Assembly: GCF_000026545.1 (NCBI RefSeq)
Contig: NC_011601.1
Length of the DNA: 64,000 nucleotides
Reading direction: 5' to 3' (one strand)
DNA from: Escherichia coli O127:H6 str. E2348/69
GTDB taxonomy: Bacteria > Pseudomonadota > Gammaproteobacteria > Enterobacterales > Enterobacteriaceae
The notes under the pieces are model-generated. The model was not told the DNA's origin. It searched no databases and worked only from the letters and a program-made list of their open reading frames with translations. The position numbers were made by a program, and so were the translations under genes. Below are positions 1,605 through 52,994 of this stretch, in pieces (the first letter of the stretch is position 1; every line of letters begins with the position of its first letter).

Positions 1605-1636
1605 TTAACCATTTCCATACAATTAGTTAACCAAAA

Positions 1637-1668
1637 AAGGGGGGATTTTATCTCCCCTTTAATTTTTC
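1637..1668 (+). terminator. Putative intrinsic terminator downstream of clpX
   Basis: G-rich/C-rich inverted repeat (aagggggga...tctcccctt) followed by a T-rich tract immediately after the clpX stop. Confidence 0.5.
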
Positions 1669-1682
1669 CTCTATTCTCGGCG

Positions 1683-1709
1683 TTGAATGTGGGGGAAACA
1701 TCCCCATAT
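1683..1709 (+). promoter_or_regulatory. Putative sigma-32 heat-shock promoter of lon
   Basis: TTGAA (-35-like) and CCCCATAT (-10, sigma-32 consensus CCCCATnT) at appropriate spacing upstream of lon; lon is a known heat-shock gene. Confidence 0.6.
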
Positions 1710-1792
1710 ACTGACGTACATGTTAATAGATGGCGTGAAGCACAGTCGTGTCATCTGATTACCTGGCGGAAATTAAACTAAGAGAGAGCTCT

Positions 1793-36568: not shown

Positions 36569-38500
36569 ATGAGTTATCAGGTCTTAGCCCGAAAATGGCG
36601 CCCACAAACCTTTGCTGACGTCGTCGGCCAGGAACATGTGCTGACCGCACTGGCGAACGGCTTGTCGTTAGGGCGTATTCATCATGCTTATCTTTTTTCC
36701 GGCACCCGTGGCGTCGGAAAAACCTCTATCGCCCGACTGTTGGCGAAGGGGCTAAACTGCGAAACCGGCATTACCGCGACGCCGTGCGGCGTGTGCGATA
36801 ACTGTCGTGAAATCGAGCAGGGGCGCTTTGTCGATCTGATTGAAATCGACGCCGCCTCGCGCACTAAAGTCGAAGATACCCGCGACCTGCTGGATAACGT
36901 TCAGTACGCTCCGGCGCGTGGTCGTTTCAAAGTTTATCTCATCGACGAAGTGCATATGCTGTCGCGTCACAGCTTTAACGCACTGTTAAAAACCCTTGAA
37001 GAGCCGCCAGAGCACGTTAAGTTTTTGCTGGCGACGACCGATCCGCAGAAATTGCCGGTGACGATTTTGTCACGCTGTCTGCAATTTCATCTCAAGGCGC
37101 TGGATGTCGAGCAAATTCGCCATCAGCTTGAGCACATCCTCAACGAAGAACATATCGCTCACGAGCCGCGGGCGCTGCAATTGTTGGCACGCGCCGCTGA
37201 AGGCAGCCTGCGAGATGCCTTAAGTCTGACCGACCAGGCGATTGCCAGCGGTGACGGCCAGGTTTCAACCCAGGCGGTCAGTGCGATGCTGGGTACGCTT
37301 GACGACGATCAGGCGTTATCGCTGGTTGAAGCGATGGTCGAGGCCAACGGCGAGCGCGTAATGGCGCTAATTAATGAAGCTGCTGCCCGTGGTATCGAGT
37401 GGGAAGCGTTGCTGGTGGAAATGCTCGGTCTGTTGCATCGTATTGCGATGGTACAACTTTCGCCTGCTGCTCTTGGCAACGACATGGCCGCCATTGAGCT
37501 GCGGATGCGTGAACTGGCGCGCACCATACCGCCGACGGATATTCAGCTTTACTATCAGACGCTGTTGATTGGTCGCAAAGAATTACCGTATGCGCCAGAC
37601 CGCCGTATGGGTGTTGAGATGACGCTGCTGCGCGCGCTGGCGTTCCATCCGCGTATGCCTCTGCCTGAGCCAGAAGTGCCACGCCAGTCCTTTGCGCCCG
37701 TTGCGCCAACGGCAGTAATGACGCCAACACAGGTGCCGCCGCAACCGCAATCAGCGCTGCAGCAGGCACCGACTGTACCGCTCCCGGAAACCACCAGCCA
37801 GGTGCTGGCGGCGCGCCAGCAGTTGCAGCGCGTGCAGGGAGCAACCAAAGCAAAAAAGAGTGAACCGGCAGCCGCTACCCGCGCGCGGCCGGTGAATAAC
37901 GCTGCGCTGGAAAGACTGGCTTCGGTCACCGATCGCGTTCAGGCGCGCCCGGTGCCATCGGCGCTGGAAAAAGCGCCAGCCAAAAAAGAAGCGTATCGCT
38001 GGAAGGCGACCACTCCAGTGATGCAGCAAAAAGAAGTGGTCGCCACGCCGAAGGCGCTGAAAAAAGCGCTGGAACATGAAAAAACGCCGGAACTGGCGGC
38101 GAAGCTGGCGGCAGAAGCCATTGAGCGCGACCCGTGGGCGGCTCAGGTGAGTCAACTTTCGCTACCAAAACTGGTCGAACAGGTGGCGTTAAATGCCTGG
38201 AAAGAGGAGAGCGACAACGCAGTATGTCTGCATTTGCGCTCCTCTCAGCGGCATTTGAACAACCGCGGCGCACAGCAAAAACTGGCTGAAGCGTTGAGCA
38301 CGTTAAAAGGTTCAACGGTTGAACTGACTATCGTTGAAGATGATAATCCCGCGGTGCGTACGCCGCTGGAATGGCGTCAGGCGATATACGAAGAAAAACT
38401 TGCGCAGGCGCGCGAGTCCATTATTGCGGATAATAATATTCAGACCCTGCGTCGATTCTTCGATGCGGAGCTGGATGAAGAAAGTATCCGCCCCATTTGA
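36569..38500 (+). CDS. dnaX: DNA polymerase III subunits tau/gamma (tau full length; gamma by -1 frameshift)
   Basis: 643-aa ORF with Walker A GTRGVGKTS and zinc module CGVCDNC; internal slippery site present. Confidence 0.97.
   Translation: MSYQVLARKWRPQTFADVVGQEHVLTALANGLSLGRIHHAYLFSGTRGVGKTSIARLLAKGLNCETGITATPCGVCDNCREIEQGRFVDLIEIDAASRTKVEDTRDLLDNVQYAPARGRFKVYLIDEVHMLSRHSFNALLKTLEEPPEHVKFLLATTDPQKLPVTILSRCLQFHLKALDVEQIRHQLEHILNEEHIAHEPRALQLLARAAEGSLRDALSLTDQAIASGDGQVSTQAVSAMLGTLDDDQALSLVEAMVEANGERVMALINEAAARGIEWEALLVEMLGLLHRIAMVQLSPAALGNDMAAIELRMRELARTIPPTDIQLYYQTLLIGRKELPYAPDRRMGVEMTLLRALAFHPRMPLPEPEVPRQSFAPVAPTAVMTPTQVPPQPQSALQQAPTVPLPETTSQVLAARQQLQRVQGATKAKKSEPAAATRARPVNNAALERLASVTDRVQARPVPSALEKAPAKKEAYRWKATTPVMQQKEVVATPKALKKALEHEKTPELAAKLAAEAIERDPWAAQVSQLSLPKLVEQVALNAWKEESDNAVCLHLRSSQRHLNNRGAQQKLAEALSTLKGSTVELTIVEDDNPAVRTPLEWRQAIYEEKLAQARESIIADNNIQTLRRFFDAELDEESIRPI
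37852..37892 (+). promoter_or_regulatory. dnaX programmed -1 ribosomal frameshift signal (slippery heptamer plus downstream stem-loop)
   Basis: A AAA AAG at 37852-37858 in the 0 frame; the -1 frame then reads GAG TGA (stop at 37861-37863); GC-rich hairpin ccggcagccgctacccgcgcgcggccgg at 37865-37892. Confidence 0.85.
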
Positions 38501-43390: not shown

Positions 43391-44346
43391 AGCTGAGCGG
43401 TAAAGAACTGAGCGCCGTCGAGAAGAGCCTCGTCGGCGGTTTTCATCATCCGTGAATAATGCAAAAAGGCGTGCAGCGTGCCTGGGTAGAGTTTGAACTC
43501 ACAGGGCTGCTGATGCGCCGCTAACGTCTGGTAAAGCAGACGGCTGTCATCCAGCAGTGGATCGAACTCCGCCCCGGCAATAAAACAGGGCGGAACTTCG
43601 CGAGTGAGATCATTATTAAACAGGCAGTAATATGGCGACTCGCGGTCCGCGTCGTTGCTTAAATACGCCTCTTCATACATCTGCAAATCCTGTTGCGTTA
43701 AGCCATCCCAGACACCACCCAACAGACGACGAGTCACGGAATCCCGTAATCCGTAAAGCCCATACCACAGCAAAACGCCCGCAACTTTACCGCAATCGAT
43801 CTGTTTATCGCGCAACCACAACGCACTGGCGAGCGCCAGCATGGCACCTGCGGAATCACCGGCAAAACCAATGCGGGACATATTGATTTGATAATCCTCC
43901 GCCTGCTGGTGGAAATAACAACAGGCAGCCACAATTTCCTCTATCGCTTGCGGAAAACGCGCTTCAGGTGAAAGGGTGTAATCAATGCCAATCACCGTAC
44001 ATTGGCTGTAGCTTGCCAGCAGGCGCATGATGCGATCGTGGGTATCGAGATTGCCGAGAATAAAACCGCCTCCATGCAAATAAAATAGCGTCGCCGGGCT
44101 ATCTGGCTGCGGATAAAAGATACGTGTTTTCACCTGCCCATATTTTGTTGGAACCCTGTAAGCTCTGGTTGCCATTTCTGGAGCGCCCACATTCCAGAAT
44201 CGGCGCTCAAGCGTGTAATACTGTCGTTGCTCAGCAATCGTTCCCGTTGCAGGCCAGGGCGGTAAATCCGGCTGAAGAGTATTCACAACGGTCTTCATTT
44301 CAGCAGAGATAAGGTCCAGAACGGGTAATTTGTTTTCCGGCTTCAT
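43387..44346 (-). CDS. aes: Acetyl esterase Aes (alpha/beta hydrolase, HSL family)
   Basis: 319-aa ORF with HGGGF oxyanion-hole motif and GDSAG nucleophile elbow; 3' end overlaps the hemH 3' end by 4 bp. Confidence 0.95.
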
Positions 44347-44497
44347 GCAAAAACTCCTTTCAAATTACGTCATTGTAAGGAACCACTGCCATGAAAATGC
44401 GATCCCGCCTGCTGATATTGAAACTGGCTGCGTCTCGCGCGCTCCCGTCAGATTGTGTTAACATTCGCCGCTCAGTTAACCACCCGTAAAAACAACC

Positions 44498-45802
44498 ATG
44501 AAATTTCCCGGTAAACGTAAATCCAAACATTACTTCCCCGTAAATGCACGCGATCCGCTGCTTCAGCAATTCCAGCCAGAAAACGAAACCAGCGCCGCCT
44601 GGGTAGTGGGTATCGATCAAACGCTGGTCGATATTGAAGCGAAAGTGGATGATGAATTCATTGAGCGTTATGGATTAAGCGCCGGGCATTCATTGGTGAT
44701 TGAGGATGACGTTGCCGAAGCGCTTTATCAGGAACTAAAACAGAAAAACCTGATTACCCATCAGTTTGCGGGTGGCACCATTGGTAACACCATGCACAAC
44801 TACTCGGTGCTCGCGGACGACCGTTCGGTGCTGCTGGGCGTCATGTGCAGCAATATTGAAATTGGCAGCTATGCCTATCGTTACCTGTGTAACACCTCCA
44901 GCCGTACCGATCTTAACTATCTACAAGGCGTGGATGGCCCAATTGGTCGTTGCTTTACGCTGATTGGCGAGTCCGGGGAACGTACCTTTGCTATCAGCCC
45001 CGGCCACATGAACCAGCTGCGGGCTGAAAGTATTCCGGAAGATGTGATTGCCGGAGCCTCGGCACTGGTTCTCACCTCTTATCTGGTGCGTTGCAAGCCG
45101 GGTGAACCCATGCCGGAAGCAACCATGAAAGCCATTGAGTACGCGAAGAAATATAACGTACCGGTGGTGCTGACGCTGGGCACCAAGTTTGTCATTGCCG
45201 AGAATCCGCAGTGGTGGCAGCAATTCCTCAAAGACCACGTCTCTATCCTTGCGATGAACGAAGATGAAGCCGAAGCGTTGACCGGAGAAAGCGATCCGTT
45301 GTTGGCATCTGACAAGGCGCTGGACTGGGTAGATCTGGTGCTGTGCACCGCCGGGCCAATCGGCTTGTATATGGCAGGCTTTACCGAAGACGAAGCGAAA
45401 CGTAAAACCCAGCATCCGCTGCTGCCGGGTGCTATAGCGGAATTTAACCAGTATGAGTTTAGCCGCGCCATGCGCCACAAGGATTGCCAGAATCCGCTGC
45501 GTGTCTATTCGCACATTGCGCCGTATATGGGCGGGCCGGAAAAAATCATGAACACTAACGGAGCAGGGGATGGCGCACTGGCAGCGTTGCTGCATGACAT
45601 TACCGCCAACAGCTACCACCGTAGCAACGTACCAAACTCCAGCAAACATAAATTCACCTGGTTAACTTATTCATCGTTAGCGCAGGTGTGTAAATATGCT
45701 AACCGTGTGAGCTATCAGGTACTGAACCAGCATTCACCTCGTTTAACGCGCGGCTTGCCGGAGCGTGAAGACAGCCTGGAAGAGTCTTACTGGGATCGTT
45801 AA
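44498..45802 (+). CDS. gsk: Inosine-guanosine kinase
   Basis: 434-aa ORF MKFPGKRKSKHYFPVNARDPLLQQFQPENETSAAWVVGIDQTLVD..., matches Gsk. Confidence 0.96.
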   Translation: MKFPGKRKSKHYFPVNARDPLLQQFQPENETSAAWVVGIDQTLVDIEAKVDDEFIERYGLSAGHSLVIEDDVAEALYQELKQKNLITHQFAGGTIGNTMHNYSVLADDRSVLLGVMCSNIEIGSYAYRYLCNTSSRTDLNYLQGVDGPIGRCFTLIGESGERTFAISPGHMNQLRAESIPEDVIAGASALVLTSYLVRCKPGEPMPEATMKAIEYAKKYNVPVVLTLGTKFVIAENPQWWQQFLKDHVSILAMNEDEAEALTGESDPLLASDKALDWVDLVLCTAGPIGLYMAGFTEDEAKRKTQHPLLPGAIAEFNQYEFSRAMRHKDCQNPLRVYSHIAPYMGGPEKIMNTNGAGDGALAALLHDITANSYHRSNVPNSSKHKFTWLTYSSLAQVCKYANRVSYQVLNQHSPRLTRGLPEREDSLEESYWDR

Positions 45803-45816
45803 GTTATCGTCGGTTC

Positions 45817-45900
45817 GTAGGCCAGATAAGGCGTTCACGCCGCATCTGGCATTTTGCTTTCAATGCCTGATGCGACGCTGGCGCGTCTTATCAGGCCTAC
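45817..45900. repeat. BIME: two inverted REP elements downstream of gsk
   Basis: gtaggccagataaggcgttcacgccgcatctggca and gcctgatgcgacgctggcgcgtcttatcaggcctac in opposite orientation. Confidence 0.65.
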
Positions 45901-45931
45901 ATATCCGCGCCTATTATCCGGCAACCACCGT

Positions 45932-47608
45932 TTACCCCGTCACCACCTCACCCGCCGGTGGCGTTTCCAGCAGTTCCAGCATAGTACGGGCAATTTCACG
46001 CTCACCCATCACTACCTGATTCGCACCACGTTCGGTGATATACGCCACTTCATCGTCATAATGGGCGCGGGCAATAATCTCAATATCCGGATTTTTCGCG
46101 CGGGCAGATGCCACAATCTCGCCCGCTTCATAGCCGTTGGGAATCGTCAGGATCAGCCATTTTGCACATTCCAGATGCGCCAGTTGCATAATTTCTTCGT
46201 TCGCCGCATTGCCCAATACTGCGCGGACCCCGCGCTCGCGCAGCTCATCAACACGGGTTCGTGACGTCTCAATCACCACCAGCGGAATATCAGAGGCGAG
46301 CAATTTCTCCCCCAGCAGGCTGCCTACACGACCGTAACCCACCAGTAGCGCATGGTTGCAAATATCCACTGGGATCTGCTTCTCTTCTTCGATTGCCTCT
46401 TCCAGCGTCTGCTCTTCCAGCGTTTCGGTCTTCGCCAGATATTTCTCCAGTAGTGCGAACAGTACCGGGTTGAGCATAATCGACAGGATCGCCCCTGCCA
46501 GTACCAGGTTTTGTCCGGCCTGCGGCAGTAAATTCAATGCCATTCCTAGTCCCGCCAGGATAAACGCGAACTCACCAATCTGCGCCAGGCTGGCGGCGAT
46601 GGTTAACGCCGTGCGCTGGGAGTGACCAAACAAACGCACAAGGAACAGGGCCGCGACCGATTTACCAAACAGAATAATTGCCAGCGTCGCCAGTACTGCC
46701 AGCGGTTGCTGAATCAGAATTAACGGATCAAACAACATCCCGACGGAGACAAAAAACAGCACCGCAAACGCGTCGCGCAATGGCAGTGTATCGTGGGCGG
46801 CACGGTGACTCAGTTCAGACTCGTTCAGTACCATCCCGGCAAAGAACGCACCGAGTGCAAAGGAGACATCAAACAGCTCTACCGCACCAAAGGCAATCCC
46901 TAACGCCAGCGCCAGCACCGACAGGGTAAACAGCTCGCGGGAACCGGTTGCTGCGCTGCGTGCCATAATCCACGGCACCAGACGGCGACCTACCAGCATC
47001 ATAATGGCGATAAATGCGATCACCTTGCCGATGGTGATCCCCATATCGACTGCAAGAGTGGCAAAGCCCACATCGCCCTGTTCCATCATTCCTGCTACCG
47101 CGGGTAGCAATACCAGCGTCAGGACCATCACCAGGTCTTCCACAATCAACCAACCGATGGCGATTTGCCCACGCTGACTGTCAATTAATTGCCGTTCTTC
47201 AAGTGCGCGCAGTAACACCACGGTACTGGCGGTGGAAAGACATAAGCCGAACACGATACCGGTCATTAACGACCAGCCCAGCACGGCGGAGAGCGCCATA
47301 CCCAGCAGCGTCGCCACGGCTATCTGGGCGATCGCGCCGGGAATGGCGATGGACTTTACCGCCATCAAATCCTTGAGCGAAAAATGCAAACCGACGCCGA
47401 ACATCAGCAAAATAACGCCCAGTTCAGCCAGTTCCGGCGCAAGCTTGGTATCGGCAACAAAGCCCGGAGTGAATGGTCCTGCCAGCACACCCGCTAACAG
47501 ATATCCCACCAGAGGAGAAATACGTAGTTTATTGGCCAGCATGCCGAGGATAAAGGCGAGCACAAGGCCGCCAACAATGGTGGTGATAAGCGGGGTGGTG
47601 TGATGCAT
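45932..47608 (-). CDS. ybaL: CPA2-family cation:proton antiporter with C-terminal TrkA-N/RCK domain (YbaL)
   Basis: 558-aa ORF with multi-TM N-terminal domain and Rossmann-like motif VGYGRVGS. Confidence 0.94.
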   Translation of the reverse strand: MHHTTPLITTIVGGLVLAFILGMLANKLRISPLVGYLLAGVLAGPFTPGFVADTKLAPELAELGVILLMFGVGLHFSLKDLMAVKSIAIPGAIAQIAVATLLGMALSAVLGWSLMTGIVFGLCLSTASTVVLLRALEERQLIDSQRGQIAIGWLIVEDLVMVLTLVLLPAVAGMMEQGDVGFATLAVDMGITIGKVIAFIAIMMLVGRRLVPWIMARSAATGSRELFTLSVLALALGIAFGAVELFDVSFALGAFFAGMVLNESELSHRAAHDTLPLRDAFAVLFFVSVGMLFDPLILIQQPLAVLATLAIILFGKSVAALFLVRLFGHSQRTALTIAASLAQIGEFAFILAGLGMALNLLPQAGQNLVLAGAILSIMLNPVLFALLEKYLAKTETLEEQTLEEAIEEEKQIPVDICNHALLVGYGRVGSLLGEKLLASDIPLVVIETSRTRVDELRERGVRAVLGNAANEEIMQLAHLECAKWLILTIPNGYEAGEIVASARAKNPDIEIIARAHYDDEVAYITERGANQVVMGEREIARTMLELLETPPAGEVVTG

Positions 47609-47846
47609 TCCGTCTCCTTTTCCTGGTGGTTATTGTCCATTTTTGGCCGGGAAAACCAAAATTACAGGTAATAGTTTATGACAATTTCATTGATGATGTT
47701 TATGAATAATTGTTGAATTTTGCAGAAAAATGGAATTAGCTGCAAAAAAAAGCACGGATCGGAAAACAGAAGGCGGTTTAACAGAGGAAAGGCTTATGGC
47801 GACTGTAAAACGATGCAGCCAAAGTTTGCCTTTGGCTGCAATGAAA

Positions 47847-49067
47847 TCAGTCTTTATGCCGGTTATCAGGCAGGAATATGGTCAACATCCCCAATAGTGG
47901 CAGGAAAGCACAGATTTTATAGACTAACTCTATGCTGGTGTGGTCGGCGATAAGCCCCAGAACTGCCGCCCCCAGACCTCCCATGCCGAAAGCAAAACCG
48001 AAAAATAGTCCAGAAACCATACCGATACGTCCCGGAAGCAGCTCCTGGGCATAGACCAGAATGGCAGAGAATGCCGAAGCGAGGATAAATCCAATAATCA
48101 CCGTTAAAACCCCCGTCCAGTGCAGGCTGGCGTAGGGTAAAATCAGCGTAAACGGCGCAACGCCGAGGATAGAGCCCCAAATCACATATTTCCGTCCAAT
48201 TTTATCCCCTACAGGCCCGCCAATCACCGTACCTGCCGCAACGGCAAACAGGAAGGCAAACAAATGAAGCTGAGCATTCTGGATAGATAATCCGAATTTT
48301 TGCATCAGATAAAAGGTGTAATAGCTGCTGATGCTCGCCATATAGAAATATTTCGAGAAAATGAGGATTAACAGAATGCTGACCGCCAGAACAACTTTAT
48401 TGCGCGGCAGTGGATTGATAATCGTCGCTTTGGGTTTTCCTTTATTCATTCGGTGCTGTGCCGAGTACCAACGGCTGATTTGCGCCAACACCACGATCGC
48501 CAGCAGTGCCGCAAGCACAAACCAGGCAACGTTGCCTTTGCCATAAGGCGCGATAATCACCGCCGCCAGCAAGGGGCCCAGGGAACTGCCAAAGTTGCCG
48601 CCGACCTGAAATATAGATTGCGCCAGGCCATGACGCCCGCCGGAAGCCATACGGGCCACGCGAGAAGATTCCGGATGAAAGACCGATGAACCGGTACCGA
48701 CCAGCGCCGCTGCCAGCAGAACTGCGCCAAAACTGCCCGCCAGCGCCAGCAGCACCAGACCACTTAAGGTAAAACACATGCCAATCGGCAACGACCACGG
48801 CATCGGATATTTATCGGTCCAGTAGCCGACCACCGGTTGCAGTAGCGAAGAGGCGAGCTGGAAGGTGAGGGTTATCATGCCAATCTGCATAAATGTCAGA
48901 GAAAATTCTGACTGAAGCAGTGGATAAATCGCCAGAATCAGCGATTGGATCATGTCGTTCAGCAGATGTGAGAGGCTGATAGCACCTAAAATACCAAACG
49001 ATGTTCGGGCCTTAGTCGTTGACGCAGCCGCGCCCGCCACAGGCTGGGTTTGTTCACTCATTGCCAT
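47847..49067 (-). CDS. fsr: MFS transporter Fsr (fosmidomycin resistance)
   Basis: 406-aa 12-TM ORF MAMSEQTQPVAGAAASTTKARTSFGILGAISLSHLLNDMIQ... Confidence 0.94.
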   Translation of the reverse strand: MAMSEQTQPVAGAAASTTKARTSFGILGAISLSHLLNDMIQSLILAIYPLLQSEFSLTFMQIGMITLTFQLASSLLQPVVGYWTDKYPMPWSLPIGMCFTLSGLVLLALAGSFGAVLLAAALVGTGSSVFHPESSRVARMASGGRHGLAQSIFQVGGNFGSSLGPLLAAVIIAPYGKGNVAWFVLAALLAIVVLAQISRWYSAQHRMNKGKPKATIINPLPRNKVVLAVSILLILIFSKYFYMASISSYYTFYLMQKFGLSIQNAQLHLFAFLFAVAAGTVIGGPVGDKIGRKYVIWGSILGVAPFTLILPYASLHWTGVLTVIIGFILASAFSAILVYAQELLPGRIGMVSGLFFGFAFGMGGLGAAVLGLIADHTSIELVYKICAFLPLLGMLTIFLPDNRHKD

Positions 49068-49284
49068 AGGAAAGTCACTTTTTCAGGGTTGCGATGTAAA
49101 GAATGATCTTATTTGTGATTATTACCCGACTAACATACCTGTATGCGCCGCCTGAAGGAAGTCTCAACGCGGAATACAGAATTTCTAATCTGGATGCAGA
49201 TTTATCTTCACCGGACGCAGACTTGTTTATGATGTCGCGTCATACTATTTTTCAACACGTTGAAATCAGGTCAGGGAGAGAAGT

Positions 49285-50937
49285 ATGAAATTATTGCAGC
49301 GGGGCGTGGCGTTAGCACTGTTAACCACATTTACACTGGCGAGTGAAACTGCTCTGGCGTACGAGCAGGATAAAACCTACAAAATTACAGTTCTGCACAC
49401 CAATGATCATCATGGGCATTTTTGGCGCAATGAATATGGTGAATATGGTCTGGCGGCGCAAAAAACGCTGGTGGATGGTATCCGCAAAGAGGTTGCGGCT
49501 GAAGGCGGTAGCGTGCTGCTACTTTCCGGTGGCGACATTAACACTGGCGTGCCCGAGTCCGACTTACAGGATGCCGAACCTGATTTTCGCGGTATGAATC
49601 TGGTGGGCTATGACGCGATGGCGATCGGTAATCATGAATTTGATAACCCGCTCACCGTATTACGCCAGCAGGAAAAGTGGGCTAAGTTCCCGTTGCTTTC
49701 CGCCAATATCTACCAGAAAAGTACCGGCGAGCGCCTGTTTAAACCATGGGCGCTGTTTAAGCGTCAGGATCTGAAAATTGCCGTTATTGGCCTGACGACG
49801 GATGACACAGCCAAAATTGGTAATCCGGAATATTTCACTGATATCGAATTTCGTAAGCCCGCTGATGAAGCGAAGCTGGTGATTCAGGAGCTGCAACAGA
49901 CAGAAAAGCCAGACATTATTATCGCGGCGACCCATATGGGGCATTACGACAATGGTGAGCACGGCTCTAACGCACCGGGCGATGTGGAGATGGCACGCGC
50001 GCTGCCTGCCGGATCGCTGGCGATGATCGTCGGTGGTCACTCGCAAGATCCGGTCTGTATGGCGGCAGAAAACAAAAAACAGGTCGATTACGTGCCGGGT
50101 ACGCCATGCAAACCGGATCAACAAAACGGCATCTGGATTGTGCAGGCGCATGAGTGGGGCAAATACGTGGGACGGGCTGATTTTGAGTTTCGTAATGGCG
50201 AAATGAAAATGGTTAACTACCAGCTGATTCCGGTGAACCTGAAGAAGAAAGTGACCTGGGAAGACGGGAAAAGCGAGCGCGTGCTGTACACCCCTGAAAT
50301 CGCTGAAAACCAGCAAATGATCTCGCTGTTATCACCGTTCCAGAACAAAGGCAAAGCGCAGCTGGAAGTGAAAATAGGCGAAACCAATGGTCGTCTGGAA
50401 GGCGATCGTGACAAAGTGCGTTTTGTACAGACCAATATGGGGCGGTTGATTCTGGCAGCACAAATGGATCGCACTGGTGCCGACTTTGCGGTGATGAGCG
50501 GAGGCGGAATTCGTGATTCTATCGAAGCAGGTGATATCAGCTATAAAAACGTACTGAAAGTGCAGCCATTCGGCAATGTGGTGGTGTATGCCGACATGAC
50601 CGGTAAAGAGGTGATTGATTACCTGACCGCCGTCGCACAAATGAAGCCAGATTCAGGTGCCTACCCGCAATTTGCCAACGTTAGCTTTGTGGCGAAAGAC
50701 GGCAAACTGGACGACCTTAAAATCAAAGGCGAACCGGTCGATCCGGCGAAAACTTATCGTATGGCGACATTAAACTTCAATGCCACCGGCGGTGATGGCT
50801 ATCCGCGCCTTGATAACAAACCGGGCTATGTGAATACCGGCTTTATTGATGCCGAAGTGCTGAAAGCGTATATCCAGAAAAGCTCGCCGCTGGATGTGAG
50901 TGTTTATGAACCGAAAGGTGAGGTGAGCTGGCAGTAA
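49285..50937 (+). CDS. ushA: Periplasmic 5'-nucleotidase / UDP-sugar hydrolase UshA
   Basis: 550-aa ORF with signal peptide and metallophosphoesterase motifs (HTNDHHGH, GNHEFD). Confidence 0.96.
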   Translation: MKLLQRGVALALLTTFTLASETALAYEQDKTYKITVLHTNDHHGHFWRNEYGEYGLAAQKTLVDGIRKEVAAEGGSVLLLSGGDINTGVPESDLQDAEPDFRGMNLVGYDAMAIGNHEFDNPLTVLRQQEKWAKFPLLSANIYQKSTGERLFKPWALFKRQDLKIAVIGLTTDDTAKIGNPEYFTDIEFRKPADEAKLVIQELQQTEKPDIIIAATHMGHYDNGEHGSNAPGDVEMARALPAGSLAMIVGGHSQDPVCMAAENKKQVDYVPGTPCKPDQQNGIWIVQAHEWGKYVGRADFEFRNGEMKMVNYQLIPVNLKKKVTWEDGKSERVLYTPEIAENQQMISLLSPFQNKGKAQLEVKIGETNGRLEGDRDKVRFVQTNMGRLILAAQMDRTGADFAVMSGGGIRDSIEAGDISYKNVLKVQPFGNVVVYADMTGKEVIDYLTAVAQMKPDSGAYPQFANVSFVAKDGKLDDLKIKGEPVDPAKTYRMATLNFNATGGDGYPRLDNKPGYVNTGFIDAEVLKAYIQKSSPLDVSVYEPKGEVSWQ

Positions 50938-50944
50938 TCCGAAA

Positions 50945-50968
50945 GTGCCGGATATTTGCATCCGGCAC
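50945..50968. terminator. Putative bidirectional terminator between convergent ushA and ybaK
   Basis: Perfect inverted repeat gtgccggat-atttgc-atccggcac. Confidence 0.55.
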
Positions 50969-50973
50969 AATGC

Positions 50974-51468
<495 letters not shown>

Positions 51469-51573
51469 TTAAACAAAAAACGAAGCAAGCATACGCCTGA
51501 TGGCGGTCCCAAAAAAAGAGTCATCTTGCCTAAGAGTATTGGCAGGATGGTGAGATTGAGCGACAATCGACTT

Positions 51574-51657
51574 ACACCGTCGCTTAAAGTGACGGCATAA
51601 TAATAAAAATATGAAATTCCTCTTTGACGGGCCAATAGCGATATTGGCCATTTTTTT
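51574..51657 (+). ncRNA. chiX: Small regulatory RNA ChiX (MicM/SroB)
   Basis: ACACCGTCGCTTAAAGTGACGGCATAATAATAAAAATATGAAATTCCTCTTTGACGGGCCAATAGCGATATTGGCCATTTTTTT matches ChiX from memory, ending in a terminator hairpin (GGCCAATAGCGATATTGGCC) plus U-run; ybaK-ybaP intergenic as in K-12. Confidence 0.9.
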
Positions 51658-52450
51658 AGCGCAACATCTGCGGCAAATTCCCTTCTCCATACAGATGTAA
51701 AGCACCGACCGCGACCACATAGCGCCCCGGCGGCATGTCGCGTAATTTGTCCCGCCAGGCGAGATTTCGCTGATGCATCAGCACATCGTACAGCGACTGA
51801 CTGAATGTATTGGGCAGCGTTATTTCATTATTTTGCGGCGGCGCATTCAGCCACCAGCCCATCATTTGTTGCAGCAACCGTGCATTGGTGTGCCAGTGGG
51901 TCAGCGTATCGTCCAGCAGCGCCAGTCCTTTGTCAGGGAGCTGGAGCAACATGGCAATCTGTTTTTCTGCGCCTTCCAGTTCAATTACAGGTTTATGTTG
52001 TTGCTTCGCCGCCTGCAATAGCTGGTAATCGATACCATATTCTGCCCGCAGCCCCAGTTTTTGCGCCTGCGTCGCCTGAAGAACCATCGCGATTTGCCAC
52101 AACGGTTGAGTAGAAAAGAGTGACGGAGAAATGCCCATCTCCTGGCTAATGTGCTGCAGGTTTTGGAGTTGCTCCTCGCTAATGCGCTCTTCCAGTGCCT
52201 CGCAGGCAGGCAAATTGGCAAAAGGCGTATCGCTGGTGGAAACATCCGCCTCGACGATCAGCGCATCGGCGTTTTTGAGCTTTTTGAGCAAACGGGTGGG
52301 CAGGGGAGCCATATCGTGGCTACCCATATGAATACTGCCGATCAGATGAAAATGGCGATTGCCGGGAAGAGAGATATCGATAGCAGGCCAGGTGTAATGA
52401 TTACCGCGCAGCGCGGCCCAAAGCGTTTTTACCCGGTACAACAGATCCAT
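51656..52450 (-). CDS. ybaP: TraB-family protein YbaP
   Basis: 264-aa ORF MDLLYRVKTLWAALRGNHYTWPAIDISLPGNRHFHLIGSIHMG... Confidence 0.92.
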   Translation of the reverse strand: MDLLYRVKTLWAALRGNHYTWPAIDISLPGNRHFHLIGSIHMGSHDMAPLPTRLLKKLKNADALIVEADVSTSDTPFANLPACEALEERISEEQLQNLQHISQEMGISPSLFSTQPLWQIAMVLQATQAQKLGLRAEYGIDYQLLQAAKQQHKPVIELEGAEKQIAMLLQLPDKGLALLDDTLTHWHTNARLLQQMMGWWLNAPPQNNEITLPNTFSQSLYDVLMHQRNLAWRDKLRDMPPGRYVVAVGALHLYGEGNLPQMLR

Positions 52451-52595
52451 ACGACCTCCCTTTGTGAAATATCATGCTAGCGCGCGGGGAGGGATGGCGC
52501 AAATCGCAAATGGAGTTGGGGACTTGTTTGATGTGTTTGTATGCTTCAGTATGTTCCTGTATCGCTATTTCACAAGGAAGCAACAGTTAAAAACC

Positions 52596-52937
52596 ATGAA
52601 ACAGGCAACAAGAAAACCGACGACACCTGGAGATATTCTTCTCTATGAATATCTGGAACCGCTCGATTTGAAAATCAATGAGTTAGCAGAGTTGCTGCAT
52701 GTTCATCGTAATAGCGTCAGTGCACTGATCAATAATAATCGTAAACTCACCACTGAAATGGCATTCCGTCTGGCGAAAGTTTTTGATACCACAGTCGATT
52801 TTTGGCTAAACCTCCAGGCGGCAGTTGATCTTTGGGAAGTTGAAAACAACATGCGTACCCAGGAAGAATTGGGACGGATTGAAACAGTGGCTGAATATTT
52901 GGCACGCCGTGAAGAGCGTGCAAAAAAGGTCGCGTAG
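52596..52937 (+). CDS. ybaQ: XRE-family HTH protein YbaQ (HigA-antitoxin-like)
   Basis: ORF-track frame 52464..52937; start at MKQATRKPTTPGDILLYEYLEPLDLKINELAELLHVHRNSVSALINNNRKLT gives 113 aa with an HTH. Confidence 0.88.
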   Translation: MKQATRKPTTPGDILLYEYLEPLDLKINELAELLHVHRNSVSALINNNRKLTTEMAFRLAKVFDTTVDFWLNLQAAVDLWEVENNMRTQEELGRIETVAEYLARREERAKKVA

Positions 52938-52994
52938 AATAATTTCCCTATAACGGATGCGCCACCCTAAAGCAGTGCATCCGTAATGATGTAA

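Follow-up and report, generated by a model that had tools for sequence, protein, structure and literature searches.

The 84 nt at 51574..51657 on the plus strand of the window, by which we mean the whole 64,000-nt stretch of contig NC_011601.1 analysed here, are almost certainly chiX of Escherichia coli O127:H6 E2348/69, the gene of an Hfq-dependent trans-acting sRNA. This assignment is built on sequence identity, RNA structure, gene order, covariation among homologues and the two complementary sites that the E2348/69 genome contains. ChiX, for which the names SroB, MicM and RybC are also in use, is a textbook sRNA under target-mimic decoy control, and the gene as well as both pairing partners are intact in this EPEC reference strain. 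The locus is already known; it is ordinary here and lies in its usual place, and checking it matters little beyond correct annotation. Two small details are new, namely a U37 polymorphism that adds one base pair to the helix with the decoy and the breadth over which the overlap with ybaP is conserved.

Identity and location of chiX in E2348/69

An Rfam scan of the whole window gave a match to RF00368 (sroB, the older, original name of ChiX) at 51574..51657 on the plus strand. With 81.1 bits (gathering score 44; E = 2.8e-10), the match extended over the full length of the model (positions 1-83 of 83). In a permissive local scan of 50900-52600, no other credible Rfam family was found on either strand. 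A covariance model of our own (R1, described below) has its single match in the window at the same coordinates, with 106.3 bits. Compared with chiX b4585 as annotated in K-12 (MG1655), the sequence is identical in 83 of 84 positions. Furthermore, 5422 of the complete E. coli genomes (n = 5426) carry chiX, each as a single copy. The intergenic region 51454-51700 agrees with E2348/69 at every position; in a comparison of 44000-64000, three O127:H6 E2348/69 records matched all 20 kb at 100% identity, and the next best genomes reached 98.5%.

The gene is located between ybaK (50974..51453, minus strand) and ybaP (ORF 51656..52450, minus strand), in the opposite direction to both. The same order is found in the annotations of E2348/69, for its ybaK and ybaP genes, and of MG1655, in which the ncRNA chiX b4585 occupies 507204..507287 on the plus strand and ybaP 507286..508080. 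The sRNA itself carries no annotation in RefSeq/PGAP for E2348/69, which is an annotation gap and no evidence of absence. The features of the locus are as follows.

51539..51544, plus strand: predicted -35 hexamer of chiX, TTGGCA (promoter scan)
51562..51567, plus strand: predicted -10 hexamer of chiX, GACAAT, within the conserved block TTGAGCGACAAT (promoter scan)
51574..51657, plus strand: ChiX sRNA, 84 nt (RF00368, identity to b4585, model R1)
51577..51595, plus strand: 5' hairpin, nt 4-22, 8 bp, loop UAA (minimum-energy fold, covariation)
51599..51610, plus strand: four AAN motifs, AAU AAU AAA AAU, in the single-stranded linker (read from the sequence)
51610..51617, plus strand: nt 37-44, UAUGAAAU, forming the second helix with the chbBC decoy (complementary to ATTTCATA)
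51618..51631, plus strand: seed, UCCUCUUUGACG at nt 45-56 for chiP and CUCUUUGACGGG at nt 47-58 for chbBC (perfect complements)
51630..51649, plus strand: Rho-independent terminator stem-loop, nt 57-76, 8 bp, loop GCGA (terminator scan, fold)
51651..51657, plus strand: 3' U7 tail, putative Hfq proximal-face site (read from the sequence)
51656..51658, minus strand: ybaP stop codon TAA, TTA on the plus strand (end of the ybaP ORF 51656..52450)

The sequence-only reading had placed ChiX at 51574-51657, as an element of ~84 nt with a terminator hairpin that lies between ybaK and ybaP and whose 3' end adjoins or runs into the ybaP stop region on the opposite strand. All of this is borne out: the sroB match has exactly these coordinates, one mismatch in 84 to b4585 is not a substantial divergence, the hairpin appears in the fold as well as in the terminator scan, the placement agrees with the ORFs and with both annotations, and the overlap amounts to 2 nt.

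Elsewhere in the window, four further Rfam matches exceed their gathering thresholds.

1625-1721, minus strand: sraA sRNA (Rfam, 105 bits)
20931-21027, plus strand: small SRP RNA, ffs (Rfam, 68.1 bits)
37833-37897, plus strand: dnaX programmed-frameshift element (Rfam, 96.8 bits)
45820-45897, plus strand: naRNA4, a REP-type element (Rfam, 79.8 bits)

In addition, the spacer between ybaQ and copA measures about 57 bp in the window (~52940-52995) compared with about 315 bp in a K-12 derivative (L002, 3977-4293), so that the two are separated by an indel of roughly 250 bp.

RNA structure, promoter and the end of ybaP

The minimum-energy fold of the 84 nt (-23.9 kcal/mol, z = -3.8, with none of 200 shuffles as stable) consists of two hairpins with the linker and the seed open between them and U7 following the terminator; seed positions nt 45-56 are unpaired. 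The terminator scan returned the same stem as the fold, with the tail ATTTTTTT. Within the seed, AAAUUCCUCUUUGAC corresponds to a highly conserved block of the Rfam sroB consensus, where it is written in upper case.

Four AAN motifs of ChiX have been described to bind the distal face of Hfq, and their deletion weakens the competition of ChiX for this chaperone (PMC7987339). A single-stranded U tail of 7 nt has also been reported (bioRxiv 10.1101/2021.04.25.441314). The sequence features that define class II Hfq sRNAs, an oligo-U tail together with several AAN/ARN motifs, are found here as U7 and AAU AAU AAA AAU. As a side observation, the ChiX linker of E. coli N1420 (NZ_CP176489.1; L004, ~301-387) is longer by an inserted ATA (3 nt); it reads AAU AAU AAU AAA AAA and comprises five AAN motifs compared with four.

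Upstream of the gene, the promoter scan detected a promoter-like site at 51539..51567, with TTGGCA, a 17-nt spacer and GACAAT, which matches the consensus in 9 of 12 positions and has its end 6 nt upstream of the annotated 5' end. The hexamer TTGGCA is kept across the genera of the Enterobacteriaceae, together with the block TTGAGCGACAAT and an A-tract upstream, and the block AGCGACAAT around the -10 hexamer is invariant in all Enterobacteriaceae homologues aligned. Promoter function of this site is predicted from sequence. At position -3 (51571) the window has C and K-12 has G. The upstream region is disrupted in E. coli GPT24-01 (NZ_OZ282436.1; L005, 379-1359), where the ybaK-chiX spacer carries an IS5 insertion; the end of the element lies a few bases upstream of the -35 hexamer and the upstream A-tract is replaced, and this insertion could have altered chiX expression in that strain.

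Another block of the same spacer, AGCATACGCC (~51485-51499), has an invariant sequence across Enterobacteriaceae genera and was scored as terminator-like on the minus strand by the pattern scan. Since the sequence is conserved without covariation, and since the minus strand reads TATGCT (~51488-51493) at a distance of about 35 nt from the downstream ybaK ATG, this block is more likely the -10 element of ybaK, divergent from chiX, than a terminator.

At the other end of the gene, the last two U of ChiX (51656-51657) fall within the ybaP stop codon, and the same 2-nt overlap exists in MG1655. Hairpin and U-tract might on these grounds be taken mainly as the 3' end of ybaP, that is, as a shared or bidirectional terminator with no independent RNA gene on the plus strand, and the stem is indeed palindromic enough to form on either strand. 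This explanation is extremely improbable. On the minus strand the stem is followed by CGUCAAAGAGG, which contains no U-run, and would make a poor intrinsic terminator for ybaP. Moreover, the plus strand has a conserved upstream promoter, a 5' hairpin with covariation and a seed, all without a role in ending ybaP, and Rfam and the MG1655 annotation both assign the ncRNA to the plus strand.

Homologues, covariation and gene order

Homologues were collected with a 19-base pattern containing the seed, using one genome per species, which yielded 120 loci. All of them belong to the Enterobacterales except for one contig labelled "Proteobacteria", which is Enterobacter-like, and one chance match. The latter was discarded: it is a 20-mer match (L063) in a 'Lindowbacteria' metagenome-assembled genome, is devoid of the hairpins and is not matched by R1. 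The genera with ChiX include Escherichia, Salmonella, Citrobacter, Enterobacter, Klebsiella, Kluyvera, Pantoea and Erwinia as well as Serratia, Yersinia, Rahnella, Hafnia, Proteus and others. Because the search pattern contains the seed, its invariance among these homologues is circular.

In a fold survey, from which L062, L065 and L102 were excluded because automatic detection of the -10 element had mis-set their 5' ends, 74 distinct full-length homologues displayed 54 distinct 5' stems, nearly all of which form hairpins with a median of 7 bp, and a terminator stem of 8-9 bp was present in every one. A plain MAFFT alignment of 43 homologues (A2) was not used for counting pairs, as the 5' hairpins were 1 nt out of register between groups. 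Instead, the covariance model R1 was built from 13 well-aligned sequences of Escherichia, Citrobacter and Intestinirhabdus (alignment A3). Applied to 100 sources, R1 gave exactly one match per genuine locus and none in the chance match, and the 99 hits were realigned (alignment A4), giving 95 distinct Enterobacterales sequences.

In alignment A4, 97.9% of the stem cells pair, compared with 81.3% in shuffles; A4 was fitted to the model structure and such percentages are somewhat inflated, but the margin is large. Compensatory changes on both sides occur in 10 of 15 pairs, and the covariation score of 0.353 (0.104 in shuffles) was reached by none of 500 shuffles. When the partners were slid by 1-3 columns, pairing fell to 19-50%. 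All seven modelled pairs of the 5' hairpin covary, with 95.9% of cells paired, and in the terminator stem 99.3% of cells pair, with compensatory changes in three of its eight pairs.

These changes also bear on the idea that the locus encodes a small protein and that its RNA-like features are incidental. The six-frame list does contain two minus-strand ORFs here, 51450..51635 (61 aa) and 51469..51720 (83 aa). The 2-nt indels in the linker and the compensatory stem changes of close relatives would, however, scramble a reading frame while keeping the RNA structure; in addition, the 83-aa ORF overlaps the coding end of ybaP, and neither ORF is annotated in E2348/69 or MG1655. Neither ORF is kept as a reading frame among close genera, and we assign practically no probability to a coding function.

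The gene order is conserved as well. Of 119 loci, 109 have an opposite-strand ybaK immediately upstream and 111 a ybaP homologue immediately downstream; most of the others are truncated at an edge, and in a few ybaP is somewhat more distant. In most genera of the Enterobacteriaceae, the ybaP stop codon is adjacent to the U-tract of ChiX or shares bases with it, at an offset of 46-49 from the seed. A different arrangement was seen in Proteus, where ybaK and ybaP both lie on one side of the ChiX-like RNA. In P. faecis and P. cibi (L068, L094), this RNA has the same seed and scores 39.5-45.5 bits with R1. The ybaP homologue is located 1.5-1.9 kb upstream and does not abut the terminator, the only ybaK match of the pair (in L094) lies 2.4 kb upstream, and the Enterobacterales gene order is broken.

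Pairing partners, the U37 allele and known systems

Both published pairing partners of ChiX are present in the E2348/69 genome. The 5' UTR of chiP contains CGTCAAAGAGGA at -19..-8 from the ATG, over the Shine-Dalgarno sequence; all 12 nt are complementary to ChiX nt 45-56. The chbB-chbC spacer, which is identical to that of K-12, contains CCCGTCAAAGAG, a perfect 12-nt complement of nt 47-58, followed after a 2-nt mismatch by ATTTCATA, the complement of nt 37-44, so that a total of 12 + 8 bp can form. Full-length hybridization energies were dropped as evidence: RNAduplex runs of ChiX against 177 nt of chiP and 124 nt of chbBC (-38.7 and -39.3) produced long, heavily looped structures, and the chiP value does not discriminate, being no more than about 1.4 sd away from those of shuffled targets (mean -32.9, minimum -46.0). 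A shuffle control for the longest complement was equally uninformative, with shuffled targets reaching 12-13 nt through pairing of A-runs with T-runs. As the energy statistics do not discriminate, the case for the targets rests on the contiguous complement at the Shine-Dalgarno sequence and on published compensatory mutations.

Repression of chiP by ChiX is known for K-12 and Salmonella (PMC4098024, PMC7815308). It is constitutive and works through base pairing at the ribosome-binding site. On induction of the chb operon by chitobiose, ChiX is titrated by the chbBC spacer, which also triggers its degradation, and NagC adds a layer of transcriptional control (PMC4098024). A fragment of the chiP 5' UTR, ChiZ, acts as a second sponge of ChiX (PMC7815308). 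The sequence-only reading had described an Hfq-dependent repressor of chitoporin and chitobiose genes. Hfq-dependent repression of chitoporin with a link to the chitobiose operon is the published function (PMC4098024, PMC7815308), and it is supported at the level of sequence in E2348/69, where the seed is intact, both sites exist and each sequence element of the published model is present in chiX and its target genes.

Transcription, Hfq binding, repression and decoy-induced decay of ChiX in E2348/69 are extrapolated from the literature on K-12 and Salmonella. In this model, chiX would be transcribed from its own sigma-70-type promoter (TTGGCA, 17 nt, GACAAT) up to the intrinsic terminator, and the RNA would be held by Hfq as a class II sRNA, with the U7 tail on the proximal face and the four AAN motifs of the linker on the distal face. 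The single-stranded seed UCCUCUUUGACG would then pair with the Shine-Dalgarno sequence of the chiP mRNA, blocking translation, promoting Rho-dependent termination and keeping the chitoporin off. Upon induction of the chb operon by chitobiose, the chbB-chbC spacer, with its more extensive pairing (12 + 8 bp here), would titrate ChiX as a decoy, possibly with ChiZ as the second sponge; the titrated ChiX would decay and chiP would be de-repressed.

The sole difference from K-12 chiX within the 84 nt is T for A at nt 37 (window position 51610). Of the 5422 complete E. coli genomes with chiX, 382 (7%) have the exact allele of the window, and nearly all others differ from it by one base. E. albertii and E. 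whittamii likewise have T at nt 37 together with C at -3, and two further species-representative Escherichia genomes have T at nt 37. The combination shared with E. albertii and E. whittamii suggests that the window allele is probably the older state, and U37 has probably been maintained in Escherichia from that state.

We also considered whether A37U and the G>C change at -3, which together make up the whole divergence from K-12 in and beside the gene, mark a decayed or altered allele with impaired Hfq loading or expression, in particular as A37U interrupts the A7 run. This is very unlikely. In the fourth AAN motif, U37 stands at the free N position, and all four motifs remain in place (motif rule from PMC7987339); the seed, the hairpins and the U7 tail are unchanged. 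Moreover, the occurrence of the exact allele in hundreds of E. coli genomes and of U37 with C at -3 in E. albertii and E. whittamii speaks against decay.

With U37, the second helix with the decoy comprises 8 bp compared with 7 bp for A37 of K-12, through an extra A-U pair, and the local ChiX-chbBC duplex has an energy of -29.6 instead of -28.5 kcal/mol. In the fold of the K-12 allele (-24.1 kcal/mol), the A-run at nt 32-40 is base-paired to the 3' U tail, whereas in the U37 allele the A-run and U-tail regions (51605-51657) are left open (-23.9 kcal/mol); this energy difference is tiny and probably meaningless. It is conceivable, but we consider it unlikely, that U37 is a natural tuning variant, in which the second decoy helix gains an eighth base pair (about -1 kcal/mol) while the A7 run is broken. 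If so, either effect could slightly shift the ease with which ChiX is removed on induction by chitobiose.

A further speculation concerns ybaP, which has no good minus-strand terminator before crossing chiX. Read-through from ybaP would consequently be fully antisense to ChiX, and such transcripts might act as a cis-antisense sponge of the sRNA, an option to which we give even less credence than to tuning by U37.

Among known systems, that of Salmonella, reportedly described by Figueroa-Bossi et al. 2009, has the same architecture, seed and gene order, and the homologue of S. enterica subsp. arizonae (L106) scores 91.2 bits with R1. The sequence of the 5' hairpin differs in Salmonella in a compensated manner, and the linker is 2 nt shorter (AAUAAUAACGAUG). 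A more distant parallel is MgrR, which resembles ChiX as a class II Hfq sRNA that uses the proximal face for its U tail as well as the distal face (PMC7987339). In contrast to ChiX, MgrR has an unrelated sequence, another locus and other targets and is no family relative; PMC6239178 places it under the control of Mg2+ levels. The closest counterpart is K-12 chiX b4585. It differs from the window in nt 37 (A37U at 51610), in the base at -3 (C for G at 51571) and in the second decoy helix (8 vs 7 bp). In all other respects compared, the two agree: 84 nt in length, the same promoter hexamers, 5' hairpin, four AAN motifs, seed, terminator and U7 tail, the location between ybaK and ybaP with the 2-nt overlap at the ybaP stop codon, and complementary sites in chiP and chbBC of the host genome.
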